A stretch of DNA of 64,000 nucleotides from Elusimicrobiota bacterium (GTDB lineage: Bacteria > Elusimicrobiota > UBA5214 > JBBAAG01): the NCBI GenBank assembly GCA_041658405.1, contig JBBAAG010000002.1, positions 453 through 64,452 of the forward strand, written 5' to 3'. Both the position numbers and the translations under genes were made by a program. Shown in pieces: positions 4,633-40,777 of this stretch; the first letter of the stretch is position 1; each line of letters begins with the position of its first letter. Below the pieces are notes generated by a model, which was given only the letters and a program-made list of their open reading frames with translations, did no database searches and had not been told where the DNA came from.

Positions 4633-4691
4633 ATTCGGGTATAGTATACAGTTATTCTAGGAGTTAAATGATATAATTAATCGACGCTAAA

Positions 4692-4705: not shown

Positions 4706-4789
4706 AGTTGCTCCATGTATGGCATAAATATTGCAACAATGGTTGTTCGAGAAACAAAAAGAAACTGGAAAGAAAGAAGGAGAAAGAAA

Positions 4790-5275
4790 ATGAAAAGTTT
4801 AAGAGTCGTTCTGGTAGCAGCCTTAGCATTAGCAATAGCAGCGCCGTCAGCGTTTGCATGGTATCTTTATTGGCCAACAAGCGGACGTATCAGCAGCGTA
4901 GTTGGCTGGAGAATCTGTCCTTTCCATGGCCGTGAATATCATCCCGGTACAGACATTGCAGCGCCCGGTGGACGCCGGATTGGTTCAATCGCAGCGGGTA
5001 GAGTTACTTCAGCGGGTTGGGCAGGCGGATACGGGAAATCAGTGAATATGAGCCACGCAAGCGGATATACAAGCCGGTATTCACATATGAGCTCAATCTC
5101 AACACGTCGCGGTGCATATCTTGCATCAAAAGGTAAAGTTGGTGCAGTAGGAACGACCGGCAGCAGCACTGGTAACCATCTTGATTTCGGGATCAAAAGA
5201 TATGGTTCAGTAAAGGCGCCGAGATGTTCTAAAGGGCAGTATAAAACAGCCGGAACAAGAATATATCTCCGGTAA
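4790..5275 (+). CDS. secreted M23-family (lysostaphin/LytM-like) peptidase, paralog 1
   Basis: AGGAGAAAGAAAATG RBS and a signal peptide MKSLRVVLVAALALAIAAPSAFA. M23 motifs HPGTD (HxxxD), SRYSHMS, and GSSTGNHLDFGI, where HLD replaces the canonical HxH. Confidence 0.75.
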   Translation: MKSLRVVLVAALALAIAAPSAFAWYLYWPTSGRISSVVGWRICPFHGREYHPGTDIAAPGGRRIGSIAAGRVTSAGWAGGYGKSVNMSHASGYTSRYSHMSSISTRRGAYLASKGKVGAVGTTGSSTGNHLDFGIKRYGSVKAPRCSKGQYKTAGTRIYLR

Positions 5276-8641: not shown

Positions 8642-8672
8642 GTTATTGATTTGAGTATATGGAGAAAATAAA

Positions 8673-9788
8673 TTGATGAAAAACAGGAAAACGTTAATTA
8701 TTGTCGCCGCTGTACTGGCGGTATTATTTATTATCCGTGCGGTAGTGGTTAATATCAAACGCGCGGTGCCCGTACAGGTTACAACACCGGTCTTAGGAAG
8801 TATTACCGCTAAAGTCCGTGCAGCAGGAACGATTACTTCCCGGAAAGTGTTCAAAATAACAGCGCCGGTATCCGGGCAGCTACAGGACATACCCTCAGAA
8901 CTTAATACAGGGTCAAAGGTAAGCAAAAGCGCGGTACTCGCTATGATAAAACCTACGGAAGAAGAAATTTCAAATGCTGAGGAAGAACTTAAATCTGCCG
9001 AGATTAACCTCAAATTATCCCAACAAAAACTTGACCTCACAAAACAGTTGTTTGATATGAAAGCCGTAGCGCAACAGGAAGTTGTACAGGCGGAGATCGC
9101 GCTTATGCGTGAAGATTCTGCAGTACAAAAACTGCGTGCGCGCCTTACCGGTAAAAATGTTACTGTACCGTTTGACAGTGTTATCGTGAAAATGGGTATC
9201 AAAAACGGCGAGATAATTTCTGCCGGGTCAGAATTGTTTACTATAGCTGACATGAAAAACCTGATCTCCGTGCTTAACGTATCAGAGTCTGATATCTCAA
9301 AAATATTTGTTAAACAGCAGGTAGATATTATTGGGTCAGATTCAGAAAGTGTGCTTAAAGGTAAAGTTGAAAGTATCAGTATGGTTGCGCAGGATACCGG
9401 TGCGGATCAGGAACGCCGTGAACCTCCAAAATATGTGGTGCAGGTAACTATTGTTGTACCGGAACGCAACGAGTTACGGCTCGGGGGTAATGTCTGGGGT
9501 GAAGTCAAACTGGAAACTAAACCCAATGTTCTTAGTGTTCCCATGGAAGCTATATTATACGAAACCACGTCAGCAATCCCGCAGCCGTACCTTTATGTCA
9601 TGCGCAACGGTACCGCAAAAAAAGTTTTTGTTGAAACCGGGATAAACGATACAAAAAATGTTGAAATCTCCGCTGACCTAATGCCGAATGAGCAGATAAT
9701 CACCGTAGGTAATGTTAATATTAAAGATGGCAGCCGGGTGAGGTTGTTGACCCAACGTGAAATTGAGGAACAAATAGAACTTAAGTAA
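8673..9788 (+). CDS. efflux periplasmic adaptor (membrane fusion protein, HlyD/MacA-like)
   Basis: N-terminal TM anchor, a coiled-coil region, and C-terminal beta domains. It lies between the OEP and the permease. Confidence 0.7.
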   Translation: MMKNRKTLIIVAAVLAVLFIIRAVVVNIKRAVPVQVTTPVLGSITAKVRAAGTITSRKVFKITAPVSGQLQDIPSELNTGSKVSKSAVLAMIKPTEEEISNAEEELKSAEINLKLSQQKLDLTKQLFDMKAVAQQEVVQAEIALMREDSAVQKLRARLTGKNVTVPFDSVIVKMGIKNGEIISAGSELFTIADMKNLISVLNVSESDISKIFVKQQVDIIGSDSESVLKGKVESISMVAQDTGADQERREPPKYVVQVTIVVPERNELRLGGNVWGEVKLETKPNVLSVPMEAILYETTSAIPQPYLYVMRNGTAKKVFVETGINDTKNVEISADLMPNEQIITVGNVNIKDGSRVRLLTQREIEEQIELK

Positions 9789-10981
9789 TGAATATACTCG
9801 AAGTTTATCATGCAGGGATAGAAAACCTTTTATTAAACCGTATACGCAGTTTCTTGTCATTACTCGGTGTGATCATCGGTGTTGCGGGCGTTGTTGCGGT
9901 GGTGACTGTCGGGGACGGGGGTAAAGAAAAAATCCGTGAGTTCGTAAAACTTATGGGTACCGATACGTTTCGTATAGAATCGCTGGAATATATTACGGGT
10001 AAGCCGCAGAGTAAGTATAACCTTATCCGTATGACGGATGACGATTTTGGTGCGATAAAAAGGTATTGTTCCGCAGTTGCAGAGATCACAGAAGTAATAC
10101 CGTTAATATTGAGTGCTCCGGCGGATAATGTTGTAATTGAATGTTCAGGTGTTACACCGAGTTACCGCCAGATCGCGCATGCACGCGTGCTTGAGGGTAG
10201 GTTTATTAATGAAGTTGACCTACGTGAACGCCGCGCGGTGTGTGTATTGGAAGACAGCCCGTTATTAATAAAAACGTTAGGTAAAAACCCGCGGGTAGGT
10301 GAGTTTGTGACTTTTGGGATGGATAGGTTTGAAGTCATAGGAAAAGTTAAACGCCAGAGGCTTATCTTCGAACGCGAGAACGTAGTTGAACTTTTTGTTC
10401 CTCAAACCCTGGCAAATGATAGAACCGGGTATTCAATGTTTGGCGAAGTGTTTGTCCAGGCGGTTTCACAATCAGCGGTACCGCTTGCGATGAGGCAGGT
10501 ACGCGAGATGCTGAAATCGCGGTACGGCGGGCTGGAATATTTTCAGCCTATGGCACATAGCGCGTTATTGAAGGAAGGGTTGAAACAAATTAATTCATCA
10601 ACAATGGTGATGACTGGTATAGCGTTATTGTCACTTATTGTCGGGGGTATTGGTATTATGAATGTTATGCTGGTGACTGTGAAAGAACGCACCCGCGAGA
10701 TTGGCGTGCGTAAAGCTATCGGCGCGACAAGCAGGGATATATTGCTGCAATTCATACTTGAATCTTCTATTTTATGTATTATCGGCGGGCTCGCTGGAAT
10801 TATTTTCGGTATATTAGTATCGTTTTATATTGTTCCCTTCCTGGATGTGCCTTTTGTGATATCGATACGGTCAATCGCAGTGGGGTTTGTGTTCTCAGTT
10901 GTGGTAGGTATTTTCTCCGGGACATATCCTGCGGTACAGGCAAGTAAACTTCAGCCAGTAGAGGCGTTGCGTCATGAATGA
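9788..10981 (+). CDS. MacB/FtsX-like ABC transporter permease
   Basis: N-terminal TM, a periplasmic MacB_PCD-like domain, and a C-terminal FtsX 3-TM region (GGIGIMNVMLVTVKERTREIGVRKAIGA). Confidence 0.75.
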   Translation: MNILEVYHAGIENLLLNRIRSFLSLLGVIIGVAGVVAVVTVGDGGKEKIREFVKLMGTDTFRIESLEYITGKPQSKYNLIRMTDDDFGAIKRYCSAVAEITEVIPLILSAPADNVVIECSGVTPSYRQIAHARVLEGRFINEVDLRERRAVCVLEDSPLLIKTLGKNPRVGEFVTFGMDRFEVIGKVKRQRLIFERENVVELFVPQTLANDRTGYSMFGEVFVQAVSQSAVPLAMRQVREMLKSRYGGLEYFQPMAHSALLKEGLKQINSSTMVMTGIALLSLIVGGIGIMNVMLVTVKERTREIGVRKAIGATSRDILLQFILESSILCIIGGLAGIIFGILVSFYIVPFLDVPFVISIRSIAVGFVFSVVVGIFSGTYPAVQASKLQPVEALRHE

Positions 10982-21677: not shown

Positions 21678-22499
21678 TTACGTTCCGACCCGTACATCAC
21701 TGGTTAATTGTTTTAACAACGCAATTACTGATAGTACTGCGAGGTAGCTGGTCTTAGGATTATCCGGTGAAGGTATATTGTGAGTATGAGTTGTTATATC
21801 TCCGAATTCGCCGCTAATACATATTTCATGGGAGTTAATCTTGGTATCCGGATCAGCTACTATTTTTACTCTTGGCAAGTACCGGAACTCTGTCGCTGCA
21901 GCAAGTACTGCTGCGACGTTTATGTTGACCGGGAAACTTTTTGCTGCTTCATAAACAGTACCGCTGAATATGCATTTCGGGCTAGTGAGTTTAGATAAAT
22001 CAATTTTATGTTTCAAAACATACGGTGCGGAAGCTAAACTTGCAGGGCTTTTTGTGGTGGTAAGCATAAGGTTCTTGATTCCGCATACCGCCGCGGCTTT
22101 CACAGCGTCAACCCCGGCAATTGCTCCGGAAGGTAAGTGAAGTTTAACACCCTGTGCTTTGTATTTCTCAATAATTCGTTTGTTTAATAATAAACCGTTG
22201 ATGCTGATGCATATAGTAGGCGTCCTGTATTTTAACGCTGCCTGCGCGACTACCGGCACTGCTGCGGGTGATGCGCATTCAAGTACGAGATCACAAATGT
22301 GTACCGCTGAATCTATGCTTTTACATATTTTAATTCCTGGTACAGCCAGGCCTGCTGCCTGTTCCGGATTTATGTCGTACACTGCCGCGAGTTTGATCCC
22401 CGGCACTTTGCCGGTGATTATACTCTTAACCACCTGACGTCCGATATTACCGCAACCGATGATTGATAGTTTAGTAATAGTTTTGTTTATTTTGTCCAT
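21678..22499 (-). CDS. nadX: L-aspartate dehydrogenase
   Basis: N-terminal Rossmann motif GCGNIGRQV and a length of about 270 aa. It sits near nadA. Confidence 0.6.
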   Translation of the reverse strand: MDKINKTITKLSIIGCGNIGRQVVKSIITGKVPGIKLAAVYDINPEQAAGLAVPGIKICKSIDSAVHICDLVLECASPAAVPVVAQAALKYRTPTICISINGLLLNKRIIEKYKAQGVKLHLPSGAIAGVDAVKAAAVCGIKNLMLTTTKSPASLASAPYVLKHKIDLSKLTSPKCIFSGTVYEAAKSFPVNINVAAVLAAATEFRYLPRVKIVADPDTKINSHEICISGEFGDITTHTHNIPSPDNPKTSYLAVLSVIALLKQLTSDVRVGT

Positions 22500-25400
22500 A
22501 CTTCACTTTCTGATAATTTGAGTATAACATCTTTACCGGTAACTACGCGTAGCTTACAGCTGTCAGTCATTACTGCCGGGAATGTAATTGTTTTCTTGAG
22601 TACATCGCGTGAATAGTTTGTGAACGTATTATCTACAGTCACCTGTCCTGCTGAATTCCAGCCGGCAGGGCTGCTACTATTTTTTGCCAGTACTTCAAGT
22701 TCATCAATTTTTCCTTGATAATATAATACTACTTTGTTGACTTCAAATGTTTTAGGGAAACGGTACTCAATTTCTATAACCGGTACTGGTGTTGACCATG
22801 ATACAATCCAGTCGTTAAGTTTTGTAATACCCGCGTCAACATCGCCTGCCGTAGGAGCTGCGCGGCGGTTTGTGAGTTTACCGTCAGAAAATGTTAACCA
22901 CCCGTCTTTTTGCTGTATTGTGGTATCTTTGATTAGATCAGGCGTAACAGAATACTTATACATCCCGCCGGGAGTATATTTAGAAGTATTTGTGAATGCA
23001 GGCTTGTTAGAATCCCAAAAAATGTAGTTATTGGTCAGGCATACGCCATCCGGGGGTAAGTGTTGCGGTAGTGTGTACTTCGGAAGTTTAAATCTCCAAA
23101 TATCATGTCCTGTTGTTATCCCAACTTTTGCGCATAATAAATTAAACAGTTCTTTCCACGCAGTATCCGTAATATTTTTTTGTGTTAACGGGTTAAACCC
23201 GAACATCCATACAGTACCTTTCCCAAAACTGTGGGTAATAACCGCGGCGCTATTGTTTTTGTAAACAGCAACGGTTTGTGTATTATTATCATTTGGTAAT
23301 AACTCATATCCGCGTTCATTAACACTTAACTCTTTGTTATTAAACACCTTGAAGTTAACAGTTTCAGTATTGACCCCAGGTAGTTTATTCCCAAGTTTAC
23401 AACCAAATAACTGTGTGTAGTCTATTTGAGTGTCATCACCCAGAGGGTCGTACATAAACGCTTCCGGGTCAAATACCACAAGTGTTCCGCCGCTGCGGAC
23501 ATAATCCTGGATTTTTTGTACAACCTCCCTGCGTTCATATTTTGCGTAGGGGACAATAATTGTTTTGTAACTATTAAGGTTAATATCACCGCGGGTAATT
23601 TGGTTATCATCGATAAACTTAAACCATGCGCGGCATACCGGGCCGAGGAAAGTGTAGATCCATTCAACTTCGGAACTAAACGTTACGCCCTGTGACTGGT
23701 ACGCGTCACAGGAGTATAATACCGCTGTATCACAAGTGTTAGGGAATTGTAGTTTGTTAATCTCAGCCGCACGCTGTGCGGTCTGCATTACTACCTCGTT
23801 TTGTACAGGTGAACCAAACCGCAGAGTGTATGTCCCACCGGTTTTGGCAACAACCCCGATGGTATCTTTTAAGTACAAATGTATCCCGGTACCGCCGTTG
23901 CGGTACACCTGGCTAAAATATTCACGGATTTCCTCTACAGTAAATGTACTTGCATAATTTTCTACGTGGCAGCACGGCCAGGTTTCTTTGCCCGTGAGGT
24001 CTGCTACGAGTTTTGTTAAGAACCCGAACTCGCACCGCGAGGAGTTTAAACTCGGGTATAATTGCGTGGTCATAACATCAAAATATTTTGTCCAGTACCC
24101 GAAATTGAAAGGTTTATGCGTAGATATAGGGTCCCATGAAACTATTTTTGTTTCCGGGGCAATGCTTTTTACAATATCAAGTACGCGTTGTTGCCTCACA
24201 AAATATTTGTCGAGTATCCATCGGTAGGTCGCGACCCAGCGTTGCCGTGCGGGGTCCTTTATATTTATGGGTAAACCGTATTTCCCGGCACCATACTTAT
24301 TCATAATTTCAGTATTTACTTCACGGATAAACGCATAGGTGTCTTTCATCACTTCAAAGTATTTTATCAAGCGGGTAATTGCCTGTTCAATTTCTTCATC
24401 TCCTGAGTATATGCCCCAGATGACATCCTCGTTCTCTTTCAACGTTTTCTCTAAATCCGAGTAGTATGACTCCAGCCCTTCCGGGGATAAATTAGAAGTT
24501 CCCGCACTATCAGGTAACCGAGGGACATTCAAGGGGACACGTTTAGGAGACGGGTATAATAAACATTTTAACCCTTTTTCTTTTAGCGTATCGCGTATAC
24601 CGCGCAGAGCTGCGGATTGTGATATCGGTAACAACTTGTTATTCTTCAGAATATCAAACGAGTCAGCGTAAATGTAGTCCATACCGTACTGCATACACAT
24701 TGGGGGTAATGCCGGGCTGGTATCATGGAACCAGTAAATCGCGCCGTTTTGTGCCAGCCCAACGGTATTAGTACTTAAAAGTTCGGTATACAATTCATCG
24801 TATACCTGGAACACCCGCGGGGTGGGGGATTTTATTGGTAGCCGGCTTTCATACGAAGTTATCCCGGATGTATAAGAAAATACCGCTTCTGTTCCGCCAT
24901 CAATATCCGCAGGATAAAATAGTTTAAGCGCCTCTCCTTTATTATTCTGTGTATCAGCAGTTTTTGATGATAAAAATATTGTATTTCCTGTAGTATCAAC
25001 AATTTTTACTGCACAGGAAAAGTTGTTGCTGCCGGATTCAGGAAATGAGATCCTGAAATTGTTATACTCCACAGGCTGTGTAAGCCCGCGGAGTACTGCT
25101 CCGCGGGAATAAATGGCTGGTATATCGATATCTTTATTCTTCCCGGTTAATAATACCTCGCCATATTTTTCCATGTCCATTACCTGCCCGATAATCCCAG
25201 GCCAGTTTGTCACAGCCTTACCCGCGCGGGGATAGTTTCTGCCGATAAATAGGTTATAAACTTCACCGGGTTGAGGCGTGGTGTTCATTGACGTAAACGG
25301 AATACGCAGTTCCATGTACCACAGGCTTTTTGCGATAACCGTTTTTATTTCTGCTCCGGAATCCCATGTAATATCTTTCCCACCGGCAATAATTTGTTCG

Positions 25401-25813
25401 TCATAAATTATTCCGCGGGTGTTAATAATAATATGGTACGCACATTTTTTGCCGTTAGATGGGTCAATCATTAGTTCTATACTATCATCACCCCAAACTC
25501 GTCCGTCACGCGCGGTAGTTTTACATATAATTTTTGAAGTATCCTCATCAGCGCAGATTAAACCAAAGTACAGGTTGGTACTGTCATAAACAGCATAGGC
25601 GGTGGTATGGATAGCTAACGGCGTTTTACTCGCGATATGTGATTTAAACCCGGTAAATACTGATGCGGCCTGCCATTCTTCCGGCCTGATTTTGCCGTCG
25701 AGTATAATTGTATTATCTTCTACCTGTGTAAGAATAGGAAAACCGTGTTTTGCAGCAGAAGCCGTACTGAATAATAGGGATAAAAATATAAATGATATTG
25801 GTATTAGTTTCAT
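22487..25813 (-). CDS. secreted protein with an N-terminal CBM9/DOMON-like domain and a GH42-like (beta-galactosidase trimerisation-type) C-terminal region
   Basis: 1108 aa with a signal peptide. CBM9-like N-terminus (ILDGKIRPEEWQAAS...LYFGLICAD...DDSIELMIDP), KYGAGKYGLP, GGTLVVFDPEAF. It is a paralog of 38159-40777. Confidence 0.55.
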   Translation of the reverse strand: MKLIPISFIFLSLLFSTASAAKHGFPILTQVEDNTIILDGKIRPEEWQAASVFTGFKSHIASKTPLAIHTTAYAVYDSTNLYFGLICADEDTSKIICKTTARDGRVWGDDSIELMIDPSNGKKCAYHIIINTRGIIYDEQIIAGGKDITWDSGAEIKTVIAKSLWYMELRIPFTSMNTTPQPGEVYNLFIGRNYPRAGKAVTNWPGIIGQVMDMEKYGEVLLTGKNKDIDIPAIYSRGAVLRGLTQPVEYNNFRISFPESGSNNFSCAVKIVDTTGNTIFLSSKTADTQNNKGEALKLFYPADIDGGTEAVFSYTSGITSYESRLPIKSPTPRVFQVYDELYTELLSTNTVGLAQNGAIYWFHDTSPALPPMCMQYGMDYIYADSFDILKNNKLLPISQSAALRGIRDTLKEKGLKCLLYPSPKRVPLNVPRLPDSAGTSNLSPEGLESYYSDLEKTLKENEDVIWGIYSGDEEIEQAITRLIKYFEVMKDTYAFIREVNTEIMNKYGAGKYGLPINIKDPARQRWVATYRWILDKYFVRQQRVLDIVKSIAPETKIVSWDPISTHKPFNFGYWTKYFDVMTTQLYPSLNSSRCEFGFLTKLVADLTGKETWPCCHVENYASTFTVEEIREYFSQVYRNGGTGIHLYLKDTIGVVAKTGGTYTLRFGSPVQNEVVMQTAQRAAEINKLQFPNTCDTAVLYSCDAYQSQGVTFSSEVEWIYTFLGPVCRAWFKFIDDNQITRGDINLNSYKTIIVPYAKYERREVVQKIQDYVRSGGTLVVFDPEAFMYDPLGDDTQIDYTQLFGCKLGNKLPGVNTETVNFKVFNNKELSVNERGYELLPNDNNTQTVAVYKNNSAAVITHSFGKGTVWMFGFNPLTQKNITDTAWKELFNLLCAKVGITTGHDIWRFKLPKYTLPQHLPPDGVCLTNNYIFWDSNKPAFTNTSKYTPGGMYKYSVTPDLIKDTTIQQKDGWLTFSDGKLTNRRAAPTAGDVDAGITKLNDWIVSWSTPVPVIEIEYRFPKTFEVNKVVLYYQGKIDELEVLAKNSSSPAGWNSAGQVTVDNTFTNYSRDVLKKTITFPAVMTDSCKLRVVTGKDVILKLSESEVWTK

Positions 25814-30586: not shown

Positions 30587-30700
30587 CTATTTTTCCACAT
30601 ATCTCTCAAAATACTTTCTTACCTCAGTATTTGTAAAATGTACATAACATCCCTTCAAACCTCTTGAAAGCGAGGTTCTATAAATGTTTTTAATATACTG
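30587..30700 (-). pseudogene. C-terminal remnant of a second DUF2075-family gene
   Basis: The minus-strand translation is YIKNIYRTSLSRGLKGCYVHFTNTEVRKYFERYVEK*. This aligns to the last 36 residues of the intact DUF2075 protein (IIKNTYKTLMTRGTKGCYVYFTDKETEEYFMSRIGK*) at about 50% identity, including KGCYV.FT. A stop lies immediately upstream. Confidence 0.6.
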
Positions 30701-30809
30701 TTAAAATTTATTTACTTTTTGAAGTGTTGGATCTTTTGTTTCATTTATAGCAACCTTTAAAACAACGGTTGATATATATGACTTTTTGTTTGTATCTATT
30801 TGGGGTATA

Positions 30810-32660
30810 TTATTTACCAATTCTCGACATAAAATACTCTTCCGTTTCTTTATCCGTAAAATACACGTAACACCCCTTCGTCCCCCGAGTCATGAGCGTT
30901 TTATAAGTATTTTTGATAATGTTGCCTGCAACTTCCTTCGCTTTCTCAAGATTATCTTCTAGCATCTTCCTGTACCCATTTAACGATTTATCCGTCCTCG
31001 CCCGGTTCGAAGGTACAGTCACAATCTCACCGTCACGGCATAACAAGTCTGGTCCGACAATAACACCGATATAATCAAGTTCCAACCCCTGGCACGTGTG
31101 TATACATCCCGCTTCTGTAACAGACTGAGGGTCGATTATCCATTTGTTCCCGTAACTTTTAAAATTCCATTTTATCTTAAAATCCCATCCTGGTATAACG
31201 ATATCATACGCATCGGGATCCTTAGCACTTACCCAGTTCCAACAGTATCCCGCTACGATACGCGCTTTATTGTTAATCTGATTTTTCTCAAATATCATAT
31301 CTCTTAGCTCCACTGGGCTTTTCATCACACGAAAGTCGTATTCTTGACGAGACAAATACATATTCGCTGTTGGCCGTTTCTGCAAAGTATTATCCAGCCA
31401 TGCAAGGTATCCATCGGAACCGTTACACCTGAACTGCGAGGGTAGATCCATCTTAATCACCACTGCACCCAACTTTTTGGCCCAACACACTATTTCGTCA
31501 GTATCCCCAATATCTTTCAATGTAACCTTCTGATCTTCGTCTAAGAAGAATACGCACGTCCTAGCAGCATTGATTAACTCCTTTACCTGGTTTTCTCCTG
31601 AATTCTGAAACATCCCACTTCGTTCGTTCAACCTATGCGCTTCATCTACGATCAGACAATCGAAAACATTTGTGGCACAGTCAACAAACTTACCTGAACC
31701 ACAAAAAAGGTTAGCAATCCTTGTCTTCTTCATAGTCCCCGTGAGTTTCACTTCGTACACCGTCCGCGGAGCGGAATTTTTTGTAACATACCTCGCGTTG
31801 TACTGTTTCTGGGTAGAAGCAACTAATAAATTCACAGCTACGACTGACTTACCGGTACCTGCGCCACCGTTGACAATCAACACTTGTTTTTTTCCGTTAC
31901 GTATCATTTCTAACACGGTTTCGTACACTAACTTCTGTTCGTCTATCAGTACAAACTCTTTATTCCCTTTCATCAGAGAAGCCAACGAGTCTGCTAAGTT
32001 TTTTGACGGTTTTATCCGCCCGCTTTCGATGAGGAAAATACATTCAGACTTGTCTCCATATTTTACGAACTGTTTTATAAACTCCCTGAGTTTTATCGCA
32101 TCGTTTTTAAGGAATACAGGCGCTTTCGATAAATGTTCCTGATAAAAAGAGTTGGTGATAACGTCATCTGGTATGTAGTTGTGTAGGTACGAACAGGGTT
32201 TCAATGAGATGCTGTAATCTAGCACCGCTTCGTTATAATCTTCTAGCAATGCAGCGTACGACCAGGCCTGGTAGCTCGGGTGTTGGCATTCATGCATACC
32301 GCCATTAACAAACGTTTTGACAACTGCATCCTGTTGAGTTAGTTTAGCGGACTCCCATTGTTTGAGTTCAATTATGATCAAATGGGGTGCGTTTTTGGTA
32401 TCCTGCCCGCTGATGATAAAGTCTATCCTCCTTGAAGAAGACGGTATGACATACTCTATCGCTACTCCACAATCCGTTGGAATATCAGGATCGCTAAGCA
32501 CGGTTTCCATGTACCGCAAAGAGTTTTGATACGCTCTAATTTCTGCAGGGGAATAACCCGATACATGTTTTAATTTAAGAGAATTCACTACTTTATCTGT
32601 GAGAGTATTATTTAAAACATCATTCGAAAACTCTGTTTTTGTTGCCGTATAAATAATCAT
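30810..32660 (-). CDS. DUF2075-family protein: N-terminal PD-(D/E)xK nuclease-like domain plus P-loop/DEAH helicase-like ATPase
   Basis: RIDFIISG...IIELKQWE (D...ExK), Walker A GGAGTGKS, motif II DCLIVDEAHRL. 616 aa. Confidence 0.7.
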   Translation of the reverse strand: MIIYTATKTEFSNDVLNNTLTDKVVNSLKLKHVSGYSPAEIRAYQNSLRYMETVLSDPDIPTDCGVAIEYVIPSSSRRIDFIISGQDTKNAPHLIIIELKQWESAKLTQQDAVVKTFVNGGMHECQHPSYQAWSYAALLEDYNEAVLDYSISLKPCSYLHNYIPDDVITNSFYQEHLSKAPVFLKNDAIKLREFIKQFVKYGDKSECIFLIESGRIKPSKNLADSLASLMKGNKEFVLIDEQKLVYETVLEMIRNGKKQVLIVNGGAGTGKSVVAVNLLVASTQKQYNARYVTKNSAPRTVYEVKLTGTMKKTRIANLFCGSGKFVDCATNVFDCLIVDEAHRLNERSGMFQNSGENQVKELINAARTCVFFLDEDQKVTLKDIGDTDEIVCWAKKLGAVVIKMDLPSQFRCNGSDGYLAWLDNTLQKRPTANMYLSRQEYDFRVMKSPVELRDMIFEKNQINNKARIVAGYCWNWVSAKDPDAYDIVIPGWDFKIKWNFKSYGNKWIIDPQSVTEAGCIHTCQGLELDYIGVIVGPDLLCRDGEIVTVPSNRARTDKSLNGYRKMLEDNLEKAKEVAGNIIKNTYKTLMTRGTKGCYVYFTDKETEEYFMSRIGK

Positions 32661-32671
32661 TATAATCCCCT

Positions 32672-33016
32672 CTATAGCTGCGTATATTTTGTATGTTTCC
32701 CTTTTGATTTCCGAACAGGATACTTTGTTTGATTCTTTTTAAGTTTTTTTGCCAAGGCTATCAAGATATCAATTTTAAGATCATGACTCATCAACAATAC
32801 CCAATACAGAACATCAGCCAGTTCATCCCCTATTGCATCTTTGTGTTGTATTACGTATTTCTCAATCTCTTCATTATTTTTCCATTGAAAATGTTCAAGA
32901 ACTTCAGTTGCCTCAAGAACAAGCGACAACGCAACGTCTTTTGGATTATGAAACTGTTTCCAATCACGTTTTGTACGGAATTCAATAATTTTCTTAGTGA
33001 TACTTTTTAGATTCAT
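32672..33016 (-). CDS. MazG-like nucleotide pyrophosphohydrolase (small all-alpha NTP-PPase)
   Basis: 114 aa with EATEVLEHF and DELADVLYWVLLMSHDL motifs. Its stop is 11 bp before the DUF2075 start. Confidence 0.65.
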   Translation of the reverse strand: MNLKSITKKIIEFRTKRDWKQFHNPKDVALSLVLEATEVLEHFQWKNNEEIEKYVIQHKDAIGDELADVLYWVLLMSHDLKIDILIALAKKLKKNQTKYPVRKSKGKHTKYTQL

Positions 33017-33125: not shown

Positions 33126-35090
33126 CTAATTACTTTTGTTCAACATGTCTTTTGCTATCTTATATTCTTTTTTAAAATCTATCCCAATATCCAAGTTGGG
33201 GTCTATTGTTTGAAACGCTACATACATAAACGCTAATAATTGTAAGCCCGAAAATTCTTTGTCAGGGATGCTTGTTAAATGATATTTTTTCTCGGTATCC
33301 AAAGGATCAATTCCTTGAGTCCCGATTTTGGCTATCTCAAATCCGGCTTTTGTGATTTCTTCATTGGATTTGTCTTGAAAGTATTGTAATGCAGAAAGAC
33401 AATACATTACTGTAGCCATGTGTTTAGGAGATTGTTCAGAAAAAGAGACGTTATTCTTTGGATTAGTTTTTTCAACCGAGTCAATGAAAGTTAATGAAGC
33501 AGGATAGTTTTTACGATATTCGTCTTCCGAAACTATAGAAAAATAGGATGCTAAATTCAATTTCTTCGCCCAATTGTTTATCAATTCGTATTCCATTGCG
33601 GGCCTATGCATATCCTTGTTTTTGAAATATTCTTTGTAAAGTTCGTTTGATATGCGTAATTGTTGTTGCGTAGGATTAAATTTATAGATCAAATCAATAC
33701 CAAATAATTCTTTAAATTGCAGCGCGTTTACGATATTCAATATTTTGCTGGCATCAGTGACCAATGGAGGTATGATTTCTGCGGCTCTTGTGTCTGTTAC
33801 TGCCTTTATTCCTTCAGAAATTAAATTGTGTAACGACAAAAATTGATACGGCCTTAAATCCGGATGAGTATTGTATAGATAATTCTCAATAAATAAATCG
33901 ATAGGCGTGTTAAAGATTTGCCGGTTTATTCCATCAAACAAAGCCGAAATAAAGTCAGATATGTTTTTGTCATTAAGCCCTTGTTGATTTAATCCATTAA
34001 TTGTTTTTTCTGTCGAAACAATAAATGCTTTCTTGTGTTCATTAGTGGAGATGAAAAGTTTATTTGCCCCCACCTTTCGTGCTTCAAGGTTAAAATATAG
34101 ATGAACCAGTTCATGCATCACGAGATGCTCGACAGCGGGATAATCGTTTTTATAACGTATTACATGCGAACCCTTATTATAATTTTCAGCGATCTCTATT
34201 TTTGCAGCAGTTGGGATAGAAGCGTCTTCAACAATTTCAATTGGTTTATTCGATTGCTCTTCAAGGATTGATCTATACTGACGAAATATTTCTTTTCCAT
34301 CAATATGTCCAATATACTTAGTTGCAGTTTCCTGAGCAAGCGTTAGGATGTGGTTGAATAACTGGTTGCTACTACATGTAGGGGGGGGGGAATTTGTCAT
34401 GCTTTGAATAGCAAAATCAAACGCCTTCAAATAATCTTTTTTTATATCGTTTATTAAACCTAATGCAAAAGTTGTATGCGGATACTTTGGGTCAATCTCA
34501 TATGCCATCTCAAAATATTTTATTGCTTGTTCAATTTTTCCGGACTGCATAAGATTTGCGCCCAGATTATTGATAGCAATATTATCCCGAGGATTTATCT
34601 TAATTGCCTGGTCATAATATTTGGTCGCAGATGTAATATCGTTTTTATGTTTTGAAAGAATGTTGCCCATCATGATAAGTGCAAAACAATTTTTAGGATC
34701 CCATTTTAAAGCGTCTATTAAACAATTCAATGCTTCTTCTGAATTCCCTTCATCGGAATATATTTGTCCTAACACCCTGTGATACTCTGAATTTGCTGGA
34801 TTTGTTTCTATTAGTTTCATTAAGATTGGTTTAGCATCTCTGAATCTTCTTTTTTCACACAAGCTTATCACTGTGTCAAAATCTTTTTTCTGCGTAGCTA
34901 TTAAATTAATATCAATCGAAATTGAAACAATATTTTTAATTTCATCAATTTCAACTTTAGGTTTATATGGGCCAAAAGTGTAATAACTAATCAACTCTTT
35001 CCTCAACTTATCAATATTACTACCGTCCATCACTTTGGTTTTCGGAAAAAGCTCAAACAAAAAATTGTCTAGTTTGTGAATAATAATCAT
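33126..35090 (-). CDS. TPR-repeat protein with a central HExxH (zincin-like) motif
   Basis: 654 aa with about 5 TPR repeats N-terminally and HLVMHELVHLYF. An in-frame C10 tract encodes SPPP. Confidence 0.6.
   Translation of the reverse strand: MIIIHKLDNFLFELFPKTKVMDGSNIDKLRKELISYYTFGPYKPKVEIDEIKNIVSISIDINLIATQKKDFDTVISLCEKRRFRDAKPILMKLIETNPANSEYHRVLGQIYSDEGNSEEALNCLIDALKWDPKNCFALIMMGNILSKHKNDITSATKYYDQAIKINPRDNIAINNLGANLMQSGKIEQAIKYFEMAYEIDPKYPHTTFALGLINDIKKDYLKAFDFAIQSMTNSPPPTCSSNQLFNHILTLAQETATKYIGHIDGKEIFRQYRSILEEQSNKPIEIVEDASIPTAAKIEIAENYNKGSHVIRYKNDYPAVEHLVMHELVHLYFNLEARKVGANKLFISTNEHKKAFIVSTEKTINGLNQQGLNDKNISDFISALFDGINRQIFNTPIDLFIENYLYNTHPDLRPYQFLSLHNLISEGIKAVTDTRAAEIIPPLVTDASKILNIVNALQFKELFGIDLIYKFNPTQQQLRISNELYKEYFKNKDMHRPAMEYELINNWAKKLNLASYFSIVSEDEYRKNYPASLTFIDSVEKTNPKNNVSFSEQSPKHMATVMYCLSALQYFQDKSNEEITKAGFEIAKIGTQGIDPLDTEKKYHLTSIPDKEFSGLQLLAFMYVAFQTIDPNLDIGIDFKKEYKIAKDMLNKSN
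34381..34390. repeat. G10 homopolymer; C10 on the coding strand of the TPR-HExxH gene
   Basis: Counted directly. It encodes S-P-P-P in frame. Confidence 0.8.
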
Positions 35091-35609: not shown

Positions 35610-36203
35610 ATGAAAAATATTGATATAGATAAGCCTTTAGTAATGTTAGGAGTGTTGCTTGAAGCCAATAATACGGTATCGCCCATTAACTTGGTGGTAT
35701 GCGGCGGTGCGGCGCTTATTATTACTGGTACGATAACCCAGAGGGTGGTTACAAAAGATGTGGATGTTATTGCAATAATTTCAAACAATTTAGTTGATAT
35801 TATAGAATGCGCAAAATTACCGGAAGCCGTAATTGATGCAAAAGACAAAGTAGCGGCTAACTTGGGGTTAGATACTGATTGGTTGAATACACAGTTTTCA
35901 CATATAGTCAAAGACGGGTTACCGAAAGGGTTCGAATCAAGGTTGATCCCAAAAAAATACGGTAAGTCTTTGACAGTGTATTTTGTTGGCAGGGAAGACC
36001 AAATATGTTTCAAATTACTTGCAGCTGCGGATTCTAAACTAACTAAACATTTTGATGATTTACAGGAGTTGAAGCCCACAGCAGTAGAAATTCAAAACGC
36101 TGTTGACTGGATACTCGGACACGAATCAAGAATAAATTATAAATATGATATTAAATACATTGTAAGAAGGCTAGGATATGAAACAATCGCTGATAGAATT
36201 TAA
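35610..36203 (+). CDS. minimal nucleotidyltransferase-fold protein, AbiEii/DUF1814-like
   Basis: LVVCGGAALIITGTITQRVVTKDVDVIAII is a GG...DxD NTase signature, close to AbiEii GGTAL...S.DIDF. 197 aa. Confidence 0.55.
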   Translation: MKNIDIDKPLVMLGVLLEANNTVSPINLVVCGGAALIITGTITQRVVTKDVDVIAIISNNLVDIIECAKLPEAVIDAKDKVAANLGLDTDWLNTQFSHIVKDGLPKGFESRLIPKKYGKSLTVYFVGREDQICFKLLAAADSKLTKHFDDLQELKPTAVEIQNAVDWILGHESRINYKYDIKYIVRRLGYETIADRI

Positions 36204-37203
36204 AACAGCGTATATCTATAAAATTACCAACATCCTCTGGCGGCAATGGACGGCACTCGGGGTTCCCGGTACTATTGATGTTGAAGATAAAGGGGTTGTG
36301 GATCCAGAAGCGTTGATCCCCGCAACCTGCCTGTTTGGCCGTTACGACAGCCGGTTGTTTGACGAAATGTTGAACTGGCTGTACATTAACGGTAAAGTTG
36401 TCAATATCCAGAGATTGAAAAACATTATTGCAAAAGAAATGTTTGTAAACGCGGATATTATTCCGGCAATCGCCGAGTTTTTGAATACTACGAGTAAGTA
36501 CCGGTTCTTGAAGTGGAAAAAAATACTGCCTGCTGCCAATAATGTTACGGACAAAAAAAACTTTTTTTATTTCCGCGATGGGAACGCTATGGAACAGTTT
36601 GGCCCGGCTGACGCGATATTCGAAAAGTACGGATACCTGCGCGGGCCGGTGAAGTTGAGAGAGCACACTTTGCCGGTATATTATCGGTACGGCAGCGATG
36701 TTATATTCAAACTTCGCGCGTTATTCGGGGTACGTACTCGCGCGGACATTGTTTTGTACTTATTAACACACGAGTACGCGCATCCCAGGGAAATCGCGCG
36801 AGATTTGTATTACGCTCCTAAGTCGGTACAGGATATTCTTATCGAAATGTCGAATTCCGGGCTCGTTAATATGCGGCCGGAAGGAAAAGAAAAACAGTAT
36901 TTCCTTGATAAAACCAGATGGCATGAATTCCTGAAACTACACGATAGGCATGTGGAGTGGATAACCTGGCCGGCAGTGTTCCGCGCATTAGAGATTATAT
37001 GGTTAAAAATCAGCGGGGAGAAAGCCGACGGGTATAGCAAATTGTTATTATCGTCGGTACTACGTGAGGTTATGGATGAAGTGAAATATAAAATTGAAGC
37101 CGCTGGGATTAACAATGTTTTGACGAATCCCAAGTTTTATCTTGGGGAACAGTACGTGGATGTTTTTTTCGCGGATATGAACAGGTTGTTTGAGAAATTA
37201 TGA
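36178..37203 (+). CDS. 341-aa protein with a predicted winged-helix DNA-binding domain, partner of the NTase
   Basis: RADIVLYLLTHEYAHPREIARDLYYAPKSVQDILIEMSNSGLVNMRPEGKEKQYFL looks like a wHTH. Its start overlaps the NTase gene by 26 bp, and its stop overlaps the next ORF by 4 bp. Confidence 0.5.
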   Translation: MKQSLIEFKTAYIYKITNILWRQWTALGVPGTIDVEDKGVVDPEALIPATCLFGRYDSRLFDEMLNWLYINGKVVNIQRLKNIIAKEMFVNADIIPAIAEFLNTTSKYRFLKWKKILPAANNVTDKKNFFYFRDGNAMEQFGPADAIFEKYGYLRGPVKLREHTLPVYYRYGSDVIFKLRALFGVRTRADIVLYLLTHEYAHPREIARDLYYAPKSVQDILIEMSNSGLVNMRPEGKEKQYFLDKTRWHEFLKLHDRHVEWITWPAVFRALEIIWLKISGEKADGYSKLLLSSVLREVMDEVKYKIEAAGINNVLTNPKFYLGEQYVDVFFADMNRLFEKL

Positions 37204-37439
37204 AACTAAAAACTTTTAATACTAGTCATAAAACAAAGAAAACGCCGGCCGGGGAAATCCCAGTGGACTGGGGAACTATTGAACTAAATAAAATAGTGAA
37301 TATAGAAAAGGGTAAAGTTCCAGAATTGATTGAACAACCCGAATGGATGTTTCGTACAGCCAACGGGTATAGTTACGACGAGCTCGAAGCGTTAGCCACA
37401 AAAATTATGGACTTAGCCCGTACGCGGCTCGGGAATTGA
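37200..37439 (+). pseudogene. hsdS: hsdS (type I R-M specificity subunit) remnant, 79 codons
   Basis: ...EIPVDWGTIELNKIVNIEKGK matches the HsdS N-terminal TRD start (P.GW....L.EI....G). It is far too short for a functional two-TRD HsdS. Confidence 0.5.
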
Positions 37440-38155
37440 AAATGGATGAAAAAAGTGTGGTAACGTTTGGTAGCCAAAATATTGAGTTTGGCATCATCCG
37501 CAGCGCCCGGCGAACCATAAGCATCATTGTCGACCCTTACCTTGGCGTCTACCTCCGGGTACCGCGATATATTGGGTTGCCCAAAATCCAGCAAATCGTG
37601 AAAACAAAAGCTAAATGGATTTCTGATAAGATGGAATACATAAACAAGCTTGGCGAGATGCCGAAGAAGAAAGAGTTTGTTTCCGGCGAAGCGTTTTCGT
37701 ACCTCAACCGCCAGTATCGTTTATTGGTAGAAGAGTCAAACATAAATGAAGTGTTTTTTTTGGGTAACTATATCGTTGTAGAAACTACACATATAAACCA
37801 TCCGCGGTTAATCCGTGTGTTAATAGAAGAGTTTTACAAACAAAAAGCGCGGAAAGTGTTGGTGCGGCGAGTAGAGATTTATTGTAAGAAACTCAACCTC
37901 CCGCTCCCGCCGTTGACTGTAGCGAATCAAACCAAGAAATGGGGTAGTTGTAACAGTAAGGGGCATATACGCATAAACTGGCGGATAGTAATGGCGCCAA
38001 TAGTGCTTGTAGACTATATTTCAGCCCACGAGTTGTGTCATGTGATACAAAAGAATCATTCTACAGAGTTTTGGAAACTACTCGGCAGTATTATGCCGGA
38101 CTACGACACCCGCCGTGAACGGTTGCGTAGAGAAGGGTATAAATACTTTTTCTAA
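37436..38155 (+). CDS. DUF45/YgjP-like (M48/SprT-like) metal-dependent hydrolase
   Basis: WGSCNSKGHIRINWRIVMAP...YISAHELCHVIQKNHSTEFW carries WGSC and HExxH...NHS motifs. The family is commonly linked to type I R-M loci. Confidence 0.7.
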   Translation: MKMDEKSVVTFGSQNIEFGIIRSARRTISIIVDPYLGVYLRVPRYIGLPKIQQIVKTKAKWISDKMEYINKLGEMPKKKEFVSGEAFSYLNRQYRLLVEESNINEVFFLGNYIVVETTHINHPRLIRVLIEEFYKQKARKVLVRRVEIYCKKLNLPLPPLTVANQTKKWGSCNSKGHIRINWRIVMAPIVLVDYISAHELCHVIQKNHSTEFWKLLGSIMPDYDTRRERLRREGYKYFF

Positions 38156-38158: not shown

Positions 38159-40777
38159 CTATTTTTTTGCGATATCCGGCAGCATAAACCGCCAGATCGG
38201 CAAGTTAAACTGTTCCCCGGCCGATATCTCAAGTTCTTTAATAACATCTTCCCAGCCGGGTACACCGCGGATTGACTGCGGGGAGAAAGGATTCGCTGCG
38301 AAGTACACAACTTTTCCTTTTCCAAACCCGCGAATCACCACACCAGGATTACCGTCGGATAACGTTGCCGCTACCGTCGCTTTCGGGTCTACCACTTTTA
38401 CGGTTACTGCTGTGTTGGTCCATCCGGTAGAACGGCGTTGGGGTTTGTATAACACAAACTTCTGCCCGGCTTTCATCGATTTCAACGCATCCGTCCCCGT
38501 GCCTACCAACGCATCACTCAGGTTCTCGTCCCCGACTTGCACGCCAAAAAGTTCTTCCTGATACTTCGCGAGGCTCGTTCCGTCCGGCGCTAGGGTAAAC
38601 GCTTTCGAATCCCCGACAACCAGTGTCCCGCCTGCCGAAGTCCAGTCGCGTAAACGTTTGACCACTTCTTCCCGCTGCAGCCACGCGTAAGGAACATAGA
38701 TAATTTTGTAGTCCTCAAGTTTATCCGCGCCATCCAATATTTTATCGTCGGCAATAAACCGGAACCACACGCCAAGTTTTTCGCCTAACCACGCATAAAT
38801 TGTGTAAAGTTCGTCTGCGTAGATCGAGTTAACTTCGCTGAGATTGGTGTCCTGGGATACAAAAATTGCGGTTGATGTTTTCTCAGGAAACTTAATTTTC
38901 TTCATCGTGGTAACAGTTTTTGATACGTGCTTCATCATTTCCCATCGCGGCGGGTCGGTTACCATCGGCGCGTCCGACGCGTAGTATTCTATGCATACCG
39001 CACCGGTCTTCATACACTGGCTTGCCCATTCGCGGATATCTTCCGGCAACGGTTTGTACCCGTCATAAAAAAATGCTTGCATAATAGTCCATACCGGCTT
39101 CCCACCGATATCGTTCAAAAATTTTGTGCCGAACCCGTGGTTATAAATCCCGCGGCCACGGGTACGCCCATGCGCTTCATCCGCCGATGTGGTGTACGGA
39201 TCGCATAACGCGAGGTCCATTGTTTGCGCCATTTTCCAGTAATCGTACATAGACAACCCGCCCATAAACCAGTAGTCGCAGGGTTGCCATAACGCTGTGG
39301 GGTCGATGGATTTCAGCGCGTCTCTCATCCGTATACGCGATTCTACAAATTTATCACTTGCCCAGCGGTTATATGCCAGCCAACTTAACAGCGTGTCAGT
39401 ATCTGGTTTGGTTGTAACAAATTTTGTTCCCTTAGCGACATTAGCTCCTTTTATTGATGGTACTGGGATACCGTATTTTCCGTAGCCATACTTTTCTTTG
39501 ACTTCCACCTGCGCGTTTATCCAAAACGGTATGATATCGATAAATTCAGGCCCTGCCGGGCTTAAAGTCGGCTCGTCCACTCCGCGGTAAACATATACTG
39601 CGCCAGTTTCTTTGTGGGTAGTAACAATATTTTTCAGTGCTTCAATTACGACGTCAACATAAACAGGATCCGCGAGGAATAGGCGTTTTCTCCCTCCAGC
39701 AGCTGGATGTATTACAGGCGAACCTTTCTTTTCTGCAACTGCCGCAACAGGTGAGGTTTCTACCATAAGCCATGATTTGGCATTATACTTTTTGCGGTAC
39801 TCATTGAAAATCGCGCTTGACCCGTGAGGGATCAGCATTCCGCATTCCACTTGTTGGTCAAGGTATGACCGTAAATGTTTTTCGTATGCTTTAGGATCTT
39901 TTTTAAACTGTTCCTGCATATACTGCGGCAATTGTGCGGTGCGTATGTCGTGGTTCCACGACGCGCAAGCGTAGTTTCCCGGTTCGTTGTACAACACTTC
40001 ATCAAAAACCGGACGGTCGCGTTTGACCCCGTAGTTCGTTGGTTCCATATCGCCGTAATCCAGGCGTTCAATATAGTTGTGTTTAAACGATAATGTGGCG
40101 AATCGTTCCGGCTGGTTAAACTTCCCGCGGATGGGAGACCATGTGCTTTGTTCCATAGAATTAGGTACCTGCCGGGTAAAGTTTATGCGGTACTCGTCGT
40201 TAATACCGCCAAAATCGGTGAACGGCATTACAAAGTCGGCTGTCCAAAAGGTTTTATCTATCTTTGTAGAAGTCTTAAAATTACCCTTCCACTTTTCATC
40301 CGATGTTTTCCCGGTTTGGTCTTCAGTAACAACTTCGTGGTTCACATAAACAACGTTTTTGGTGTTTAATACCCAATGAAATGATTCCAGCGGTGAGGGT
40401 GATAAAAATACTTCTACACAATCATCTTTCCAGACATTACTCCCGTTAATTGTTACCGTCGCTTCAATTTTTCTGGGTTCTGGTTCTTCGCATTTGAACT
40501 GAACAAACAACGCGTTATCGTCGTAGGTTACCCTTACTTCAGTCTGCCGTACTGCAAGGTTACCGCTGCCGTTATTAAGATAAAATCCTGTTATTGGTAC
40601 AATTTTATTCCAGTCCGCCTTTTGTCCTTTAGCCAGTTTTGTTATTCCTGTTTTATTAACAACCACGGCATCCGCTTTCTTCACTGCGATAGCTGTTTCC
40701 GCAAATAAGTGTGTTATCTGTGGATATAACAGTGCTGACGTAGCTGCAATAACAACAACGCGTATTAATTTGTTCAT
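38159..40777 (-). CDS. secreted CBM9/DOMON-like + GH42-like protein, paralog of 22487-25813
   Basis: 872 aa with a signal peptide. CBM9-like N-terminus (WNKIVPITGF...LFVQFKCEEPEP...DDCVEVFLSP), KYGYGKYGIP, GGTLVVGDSKAF. Confidence 0.55.
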   Translation of the reverse strand: MNKLIRVVVIAATSALLYPQITHLFAETAIAVKKADAVVVNKTGITKLAKGQKADWNKIVPITGFYLNNGSGNLAVRQTEVRVTYDDNALFVQFKCEEPEPRKIEATVTINGSNVWKDDCVEVFLSPSPLESFHWVLNTKNVVYVNHEVVTEDQTGKTSDEKWKGNFKTSTKIDKTFWTADFVMPFTDFGGINDEYRINFTRQVPNSMEQSTWSPIRGKFNQPERFATLSFKHNYIERLDYGDMEPTNYGVKRDRPVFDEVLYNEPGNYACASWNHDIRTAQLPQYMQEQFKKDPKAYEKHLRSYLDQQVECGMLIPHGSSAIFNEYRKKYNAKSWLMVETSPVAAVAEKKGSPVIHPAAGGRKRLFLADPVYVDVVIEALKNIVTTHKETGAVYVYRGVDEPTLSPAGPEFIDIIPFWINAQVEVKEKYGYGKYGIPVPSIKGANVAKGTKFVTTKPDTDTLLSWLAYNRWASDKFVESRIRMRDALKSIDPTALWQPCDYWFMGGLSMYDYWKMAQTMDLALCDPYTTSADEAHGRTRGRGIYNHGFGTKFLNDIGGKPVWTIMQAFFYDGYKPLPEDIREWASQCMKTGAVCIEYYASDAPMVTDPPRWEMMKHVSKTVTTMKKIKFPEKTSTAIFVSQDTNLSEVNSIYADELYTIYAWLGEKLGVWFRFIADDKILDGADKLEDYKIIYVPYAWLQREEVVKRLRDWTSAGGTLVVGDSKAFTLAPDGTSLAKYQEELFGVQVGDENLSDALVGTGTDALKSMKAGQKFVLYKPQRRSTGWTNTAVTVKVVDPKATVAATLSDGNPGVVIRGFGKGKVVYFAANPFSPQSIRGVPGWEDVIKELEISAGEQFNLPIWRFMLPDIAKK

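Follow-up and report, generated by a model that had tools for sequence, protein, structure and literature searches.

Why would a putative nucleotide-hydrolysing enzyme be encoded immediately ahead of a nuclease-helicase, and what might the two do together? The question is raised by a 64,000-nucleotide stretch of DNA from an Elusimicrobiota bacterium (GenBank assembly GCA_041658405.1, contig JBBAAG010000002.1, positions 453 to 64,452 of the forward strand; hereafter the window), in which the first gene of a pair encodes a MazG-like protein of 114 amino acids (aa; 32672..33016, minus strand) and the second a DUF2075 protein of 616 aa (30810..32660, minus strand). A preliminary description of the window had presented this pair as a candidate two-gene defence module, and our analysis supports that reading. 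The association of the two genes proves to be a well-supported, conserved module, present in at least 11 bacterial phyla, and we regard the pair as a plausible defence system.

A conserved pair of enzyme genes

The two open reading frames are separated by 11 bp (32661..32671, minus strand), a spacing that had been reported previously and on which coordinates and sequence agree. The junction reads TAG-AGGGGATTATA-ATG and contains a GAGGGG Shine-Dalgarno-like run that shares bases with the MazG stop codon. Translational coupling of the two genes at this junction is likely, and similarly tight arrangements are found elsewhere: in 44 of 68 adjoining pairs, the MazG alignment ends no more than 16 nt before the DUF2075 start, corresponding to an overlap or to a gap of at most ~12 bp. 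The layout is toxin-antitoxin-like, with a small 5' gene apparently coupled to a bigger, potentially toxic gene. A scan of the locus for promoters and terminators gave no signal above that of shuffled sequences.

Translation of the small gene confirms the EATEVLE and IGDELADV motifs, and profile searches bear out the family assignments that had been suggested for both proteins. The 114-aa protein matches the Pfam families PF12643 (MazG-like; 3.7e-16, 59.6 bits against a gathering cut-off of 27 bits) and PF03819 (2e-5), and mouse and human DCTPP1 (RS21-C6) structures (6sqw/2a3q) match it over its full length (E 1.8e-18), in an alignment that extends to the four acidic metal ligands and to the KYP...KY tail at the C-terminus. 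Dimeric dUTPases give weak matches. Across 61 MazG-like copies that adjoin a DUF2075 gene, the metal ligands E35, E38, E65 and D68 (ExxE...ExxD) are 100% conserved, as is the C-terminal KYP...G...KY motif. Given this conservation of the metal ligands in paired copies, the protein is expected to be an enzyme under selection rather than a degenerate adaptor, and we assign it as a predicted DCTPP1/RS21-C6-type all-alpha nucleoside triphosphate (NTP) pyrophosphohydrolase with its metal ligands intact. DCTPP1-type enzymes cleave dCTP, with a preference for 5-substituted dCTPs. PADLOC gives no match for the 114-aa protein, including to the dCTP deaminase and dGTPase depletion systems.

The 616-aa protein is 100% identical to an annotated protein of an Elusimicrobiota metagenome-assembled genome (MAG), and translation confirms the D...ExK (D80, E98-x-K100), GGAGTGKS and DEAH motifs noted previously, all of which are invariant in the family alignment. 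Its N-terminal region (aa 1-235; 31956..32660, minus strand) comprises a PD-(D/E)xK-like nuclease core built around D80, E98 and K100, followed by a helical linker, and restriction-endonuclease folds are among the structural matches of this region. The remainder (aa 236-616; 30810..31955, minus strand) is a helicase region, identified from the Pfam match, the structural model, Foldseek and the motifs, with a Walker A motif at 31845-31868 and a DEAH box at 31635-31646 (both minus strand). PF09848, formerly DUF2075 and now 'SLFN-g3_helicase', covers aa 258-603 (6.5e-100). A full-length AlphaFold (AF2) model has a pLDDT of 87.9, and in a Foldseek search with this model human SLFN11 was the best match (1.4e-10), followed by RecD2, RecD, Dna2, SLFN14, Upf1 and Dda, which argues for a motor of the superfamily 1B (SF1B) type. 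We therefore interpret the protein, from its motifs and predicted fold, as an N-terminal PD-(D/E)xK-like nuclease joined to a DUF2075 (SLFN group-3) SF1B helicase. A search of PDB sequences with the DUF2075 profile gave no match at E<=0.01. The nuclease N-domain profile matches 1,621 clusters at 50% identity; among the matches listed, the domain lies at or near the start of the protein, and the near-full-length ones are ~620-650 or ~790-815 aa long. From their conserved catalytic residues, both enzymes of the pair look active.

To establish how often the two genes occur together, we used the best 80 loci of at least 599 relatives of the DUF2075 gene confirmed in a scan of 185,579 species genomes, one per GTDB species; 599 of the 600 pattern matches listed were confirmed as relatives. 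The proteins at the 80 loci are 53-59% identical to the 616-aa protein, similarly so whatever the phylum, and come from at least 11 bacterial phyla (Bacteroidota, Pseudomonadota of the beta, gamma and zeta groups, alpha excluded, Desulfobacterota, Patescibacteria of the candidate phyla radiation (CPR), Elusimicrobiota, Verrucomicrobiota, Nitrospirota, Acidobacteriota, Planctomycetota, Bdellovibrionota and Marinimicrobia) and from one Methanobacterium MAG. A MazG-like gene lies directly 5' of the DUF2075 gene, on the same strand, at 68 of these loci (~85%), so that the absence of co-occurrence in other genomes, which the preliminary description had named as a reason to abandon its proposal, is clearly not what we find. 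Two further loci, one of them that of Methanobacterium, have no upstream DNA from which to judge; two have a RadC/JAB gene between the MazG-like and DUF2075 genes, one has a MazG-like gene ahead of a tandem DUF2075 pair, one has it directly 3' of DUF2075, and six have a solo DUF2075 gene with divergent upstream genes.

The arrangement extends to more distant relatives. A MazG-like gene is directly 5' of DUF2075 on a Priestia plasmid (39% identity), on a plasmid of the haloarchaeon Halalkalicoccus (46%) and in a Microcystis-associated record of 22 kb; the pair is thus present on both archaeal and Bacillota plasmids. On a Bacillus cereus plasmid whose DUF2075 protein has 23% identity, the order is a PRA-PH-type all-alpha NTP pyrophosphohydrolase, an HNH gene and DUF2075. 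A DNA search of 5,426 Escherichia coli genomes with the Citrobacter copy of the pair (L011) gave no match. Median pairwise identities for the two proteins are ~58% and ~45%, and comparison of their trees shows moderate congruence (r = 0.39), a value that cannot separate physical interaction from co-inheritance.

Linkage was also assessed from the MazG side, using the 80 closest metagenome MazG-like genes (60-75% identity), of which 63 were informative in having at least 900 bp of downstream DNA. A DUF2075-family gene lies directly or one gene downstream at 42 of the 63: a PD-(D/E)xK-DUF2075 gene is directly next at 26 (13 close to that of the window and 13 at 30-41% identity), RadC intervenes at two, and at 14 the next gene encodes a DUF2075 helicase with a differing, GIY-YIG-like N-terminus. 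The other 21 loci have another gene next, among them Vsr, a PIF1 helicase and UPRTase, and in about eight cases a small protein (323-372 aa) in which an N-terminal domain lacking annotation is fused to an HNH (McrA-like), NOV_C or Hjc/NmeDI_C-type nuclease. Judged by the downstream genes at these 63 loci, the DCTPP1-like gene behaves as a portable leading gene for operons that encode nucleases, DUF2075 being the partner it has most often.

The small nucleases found right after a MazG-like gene (L101, L104, L110, L118, L148, L160 and L170) form two groups. Those of L104, L110, L118 and L160 share an N-terminal domain with no Pfam annotation (WG...W.KM..GD...Y), followed by HNH, NOV_C or an unassigned C-terminal region, and homologues recovered with a profile of this domain include fusions to NmeDI_C; those of L101, L148 and L170 have an N-domain of another kind and, at the C-terminus, a weak match of the Hjc type. 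The profile of the shared domain recovered 157 relatives; in the 120 that were listed, the domain is without Pfam annotation throughout. Its likeness to EVE/PUA domains amounts to a single sub-threshold EVE match (0.013), and PDB matches of the small nucleases are confined to the HNH part (McrA, TagI). It is possible that this N-domain is a new reader domain of restriction enzymes. Its own linkage to MazG is partial, since two of three relatives checked had no MazG gene.

Proposed function and its alternatives

With moderate confidence, we interpret the pair as a horizontally mobile two-gene module directed against foreign DNA, most likely that of phages, in which an Nhi-like nuclease-helicase is accompanied by an enzyme that acts on the nucleotide pool. 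Nhi and Nhi-like proteins, which combine a nuclease with DUF2075, shield bacteria from phages as single genes (Millman et al., 2022, for Nhi-like), and it is this precedent, together with the activity of the DCTPP1 family, that leads us to cast the 616-aa protein as the effector and the 114-aa enzyme as acting on the pool. The ATP-driven DUF2075 motor would move along foreign DNA that is invading or replicating, or unwind it, and feed it into its own N-terminal PD-(D/E)xK nuclease. The co-translated DCTPP1-type deoxynucleoside triphosphate (dNTP) pyrophosphohydrolase would work on the nucleotide pool and not on DNA, hydrolysing non-canonical triphosphates, probably of the 5-substituted dCTP type. 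This might deprive phages of the modified precursors with which they protect their DNA from nucleases, such that phage DNA stays cleavable; alternatively, it might keep salvaged modified nucleotides out of the host chromosome, such that the host does not attack itself. Since MazG-like genes of this one subfamily are found ahead of several nucleases that are unrelated to one another, a generic pool-level helper seems to us a better description of the small enzyme than a specific protein-protein regulator.

A link to modified cytosine is weakly suggested by the DCTPP1 homology, by genes for MrcB_N (McrB-N, a 5mC reader) associated with the pair in Priestia and in Smithella (L040), by modification-dependent DUF3427 enzymes as neighbours at three loci and by the McrA-like HNH partners described above. 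No modified-base reader domain (SRA, EVE/PUA, McrB-N or DUF3427) was found by Pfam in either protein of the pair or in the tetratricopeptide repeat (TPR) protein encoded upstream. Several observations weigh against our interpretation. The modified-cytosine idea leans mainly on the DCTPP1 homology, because the DUF2075 protein has no reader domain and reader genes occur at ~5% of loci, and the all-alpha superfamily to which the 114-aa protein belongs also includes dUTPases, which match it weakly. Nor is a MazG-like partner strictly required, given the six solo loci among the 80 and the examined S24-fused variants without MazG. PADLOC calls neither gene: its matches of the 616-aa protein to Nhi (7.3e-12) and AbiO (3.9e-12) are limited to the P-loop region (aa 233-385), and its match to PDC-S41 lies mostly in the C-terminal part. 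PADLOC also detected no intact neighbouring defence system in the window. Lastly, both proteins are unusually conserved for defence genes.

Other explanations of the pair have to be set against these same data. Chance adjacency of unrelated genes is refuted by linkage at 68 of 80 loci and at 42 of 63 reciprocal loci in at least 11 phyla, and we give it virtually no weight. A toxin-antitoxin-like or abortive infection system is a more serious contender; here the MazG-like protein would silence a self-toxic nuclease-helicase, for example by destroying the nucleotide that activates or fuels it, until a phage tips the balance. The order of the genes (a small one first and a big effector second) and the overlapping or near-overlapping junctions at most loci are what such a system would predict, and some variants have, in place of the partner or in addition to it, a self-cleaving C-terminal LexA/UmuD-like S24 domain, as befits a regulated, dangerous effector. 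E. coli MazG, too, sits in the mazEF operon and modulates mazEF. We nonetheless consider this explanation unlikely: at least six of the 80 DUF2075 genes stand alone with divergent upstream genes, the trees of the two families are only moderately congruent, and the occurrence of the same MazG-like subfamily ahead of HNH, NOV_C and NmeDI_C nucleases is more easily reconciled with a helper acting on the pool than with a specific antitoxin. The MazG-like protein could instead be the true effector, starving the phage of dCTP or other dNTPs, with the nuclease-helicase serving as a sensor or second layer. Nucleotide-depleting defences do exist, in the form of dCTP deaminase and dGTPase, and the 114-aa protein is homologous to DCTPP1, a member of a dCTP-hydrolysing family; DefensePredictor, moreover, lists the MazG NTP pyrophosphohydrolase among its predicted, unvalidated defence domains. 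Yet a 114-aa enzyme without a regulatory domain would drain the host pool constitutively, there is no visible domain that could couple a sensor to the enzyme, and PADLOC finds no kinship to known depletion systems, all of which make this scenario improbable in our view.

The remaining alternatives place the pair outside host immunity. As a housekeeping unit, it would combine a pool sanitiser with a nuclease-helicase for repair or replication restart, which would be in keeping with the strong conservation of both proteins, with the frequency of the pair in reduced CPR/Patescibacteria genomes, with the position of some MazG-like copies beside metabolic genes such as UPRTase, or beside Vsr, and with the position of the window pair directly against dapB. 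Against this stand a patchy distribution with like identity across phyla, the plasmid copies, the lack of conserved synteny outside the pair, the defence-island-type neighbours, and the fact that the pair in the window is part of an insertion in the dap cluster accompanied by local gene decay; we regard a housekeeping role as a similarly improbable explanation. The pair might also serve mobile elements rather than the host, by helping to maintain plasmids or phages, to counter restriction or to exclude superinfection. MazG genes are common in phages, and the pair is found on plasmids and in the 22-kb record deposited as Microcystis phage Mwe-JY31, but a scan of 2.9 million IMG/VR contigs gave no relatives and only four of 50,697 phage records match, three of them distantly, as against at least 599 relatives confirmed in species genomes, and we therefore rate a mobile-element function as very improbable.

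Genomic setting and module variants

The pair lies in an insertion of ~7.6 kb that breaks a lysine-biosynthesis cluster (lysA-dapF-dapA-...-[island]-dapB), in part of which the GC content falls to 0.34-0.36. The preliminary description had placed the pair inside a defence island. Debris of defence genes is indeed present, but the region is a decayed insertion in the dap cluster that contains no intact known system by PADLOC, and 'mobile insertion with defence-gene debris' is the more accurate description. The debris includes a 79-aa fragment of HsdS, the type I restriction-modification (R-M) specificity subunit (37200-37439, plus strand; PADLOC Specificity_I, 7e-5), which is directly followed by a gene for a YgjP-like metallopeptidase (37436-38155, plus strand), and the two are the remnant of a decayed type I R-M operon. 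In addition, a DUF6036 nucleotidyltransferase gene (35610-36203, plus strand) overlaps by 26 bp a gene for a 341-aa protein with a weak winged helix-turn-helix/ArsR-like region (36178-37203, plus strand); the two may work together as a toxin-antitoxin-like or regulatory pair. The island also contains the TPR gene described below; apart from the pair, its contents are decayed or uncharacterised. At the ends of the island we found neither tRNA genes nor flanking repeats, and among the island genes scanned there was no methyltransferase, only the HsdS fragment. As a separate observation, two paralogous proteins with CBM9_1 and Glyco_hydro_42M domains (872 and 1108 aa) are encoded in the dap/pan/nad block at 38159-40777 and 22487-25813 (both minus strand), flanking the island on either side.

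A degraded second copy of the DUF2075 gene had also been reported just downstream of the intact one. Such a copy exists, directly 3' of the intact DUF2075 stop codon (30587..30787, minus strand; detected by tblastn and translation), but it is merely the decayed 3' end of the gene, some 60 codons with an in-frame stop, whose translation reads ...QYIKNIYRTSLSRGLKGCYVHFTNTEVRKYFER. Its clean part consists of 29 aa with 59% identity to residues 582-610 (tblastn), and up to 62 aa align to other members of the family. Because intact tandem DUF2075 pairs exist elsewhere (L055 and L171), we take the remnant to be what is left of a tandem paralogue that has decayed, or else a scar from the replacement of one cassette by another. 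This second-copy remnant, the like identity of relatives across phyla, the plasmid copies and the insertion into the dap cluster with its GC dip indicate that the pair is horizontally mobile.

Around pair loci in other genomes, the nearest neighbours are heterogeneous, with 124 Pfam families in the 120 nearest proteins surveyed and no synteny conserved outside the pair. The commonest are RhuM-Fic proteins (seven; PADLOC PDC-S05), HNH_2 endonucleases (seven; PDC-S23) and nSTAND3 NTPases (four), followed by DUF3427-PLD-helicase enzymes (three), RadC (three) and a second DUF2075 (two); the commonest are typical of defence islands. A Hymenobacter plasmid locus includes a restriction endonuclease, a methyltransferase and DUF4747, and on the Priestia plasmid the pair is preceded by a restriction endonuclease and followed by type I R-M genes. 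By contrast with its abundance in species genomes, the family is all but missing from collections of viral sequences: of 34 pattern matches obtained with the DUF2075 alignment in IMG/VR, none was confirmed. In the record PP438423.1 (L173; 22 kb, deposited as 'Microcystis phage Mwe-JY31'), all features are annotated as hypothetical, and we doubt that it is a true phage genome; it carries the pair together with a homologue of the upstream TPR gene of the window.

That TPR gene (33126..35090, minus strand), an optional third gene of the module, encodes a 654-aa protein with matches to Pfam TPR families, its repeats covering aa ~70-240 and a HELxH motif lying at aa 326-330. Homologues, some of them fragmentary, are directly 5' of MazG-DUF2075 at eight of the 80 loci, the homologue in PP438423 is full-length (41% identity) and completes a whole TPR-MazG-DUF2075 block, and HELxH is invariant among the five near-full-length homologues that we aligned. 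Judging from this pattern, the TPR-HExxH protein is a possible accessory third component; that it acts as a sensor or a peptidase is a guess.

Other variants gain genes or domains. In several CPR/Patescibacteria loci (L032, L080, L087-L089, L106 and L109), a RadC-like JAB gene (~228 aa) between the MazG-like and DUF2075 genes gives a three-gene operon. DUF2075 variants of ~795 aa (P0002-P0006 and others) carry a C-terminal LexA/UmuD-like Peptidase_S24 domain, which in P0006 shows a cleavage-like AACG site together with a serine motif (GRSMEP) and the lysine of VKKY. The contigs that encode P0006 (L082-L084; the gene is at 5511-7892 in L082) have no MazG gene upstream, while in L091, the sole GIY-YIG variant scanned, a GIY-YIG-DUF2075-S24 gene (3222-5261) follows a MazG-like gene. 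By sequence the S24 domain is C-terminal rather than N-terminal, and it can coexist with MazG, as it does in L091. Genes for an OLD-family ATPase and an AAA_11/12 helicase lie near the S24-fused variants. The presence of this domain suggests that the effector can come under RecA*/DNA-damage control, which would fit a conflict system.

Putative readers of modified DNA occur in the extended arrangements. On the Priestia plasmid (L178), a gene for a 355-aa McrB-N-type protein (1548-2615; PF12102 MrcB_N, 1.5e-51) has a 4-bp overlap with MazG, and upstream there is a NUDIX gene; the Smithella locus (L040) encodes, just downstream of the pair, homologues of this MrcB_N reader and of the HNH_4 protein of B. 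cereus (~7940-9049 and 9649-10638). Together, these look like an extended four-gene variant. The DUF3427 enzymes that neighbour the pair are found in L005, L006 and L031, and a DUF2075 NTPase adjoining McaZI has been recorded previously (PMC6765204).

Relation to known systems and implications

The 616-aa protein resembles Nhi of Staphylococcus epidermidis (SERP2475) and Nhi-like proteins in architecture, with an N-terminal PD-(D/E)xK-type nuclease and a DUF2075 SF1B helicase. Unlike a true family member, however, it matches the Nhi and AbiO profiles over only part of its length, and whereas Nhi is a single gene, here a DCTPP1-like first gene is present at ~85% of loci and only six of 80 are clearly solo. 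With human SLFN11 and SLFN14 (Schlafen group III), it has the PF09848 helicase in common, SLFN11 being the best PDB match of the whole model, but it lacks the Slfn-core (AlbA_2-type) RNase domain and has a restriction-endonuclease fold at its N-terminus instead. The small protein, for its part, aligns over its full length with human DCTPP1, with identical metal ligands; we know of no functional pairing of SLFN11 or SLFN14 with DCTPP1 in humans. As in type IV restriction (McrBC and the McaZI-type DUF3427-DUF3883 enzymes), no cognate methyltransferase was found among the island genes scanned, and in a minority of loci the pairs of relatives are beside, or coupled to, MrcB_N or DUF3427 readers. 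The dCTP deaminase and dGTPase defences, and the dCTPase gp56 of phage T4, share with the pair the concept of dNTP-pool manipulation during infection; the deaminase and dGTPase defences belong to unrelated enzyme families, and here the gene for the enzyme comes tied to that of a nuclease. Hachiman (HamA nuclease and HamB helicase) and Shedu differ in that nuclease and helicase are fused in the 616-aa protein, in that the helicase is of the SF1B DUF2075 family, and in that the second gene is an NTP pyrophosphohydrolase. That the pairing is not a named system, as previously stated, holds: PADLOC assigns neither gene to a known system, and in our literature search we found no paper describing the pair and none mentioning DUF2075 or Nhi-like together with MazG, such that the pairing is a candidate for one not previously described.

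A bolder proposal extends from the breadth of nuclease partners. The DCTPP1-type enzyme might be a portable pool-sanitising arm of restriction, conferring 'self-immunity' or 'shield-stripping' ahead of many unrelated nucleases by destroying modified dCTPs of the kind that phages use; phage DNA would then remain open to cleavage, or bases salvaged in modified form would not mark the host chromosome for attack. We offer this speculatively, as something rather unlikely in so general a form. If it were true, pool sanitation would stand in for the methyltransferase logic of classical R-M, and the DCTPP1 and SLFN11-type helicase lineages of animals might have been functionally linked in their ancestry.

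If the pair is defensive, it would be a widespread system, with at least 599 relatives of the DUF2075 gene in 185,579 species genomes and the pair present at the great majority of the 80 loci. The pair is particularly frequent in Bacteroidota, Desulfobacterota, Pseudomonadota and the genome-reduced CPR bacteria, and current detection tools do not call it. An all-alpha NTP pyrophosphohydrolase would then be a new type of component in nuclease-helicase immunity, and the pair would provide a handle on the host response to hypermodification of phage DNA or to self-damage by salvaged modified nucleotides. SLFN11 and DCTPP1, to which the two proteins are related, have antiviral or genome-guarding roles in humans, and the bacterial mechanism could therefore also suggest ideas about their eukaryotic counterparts.

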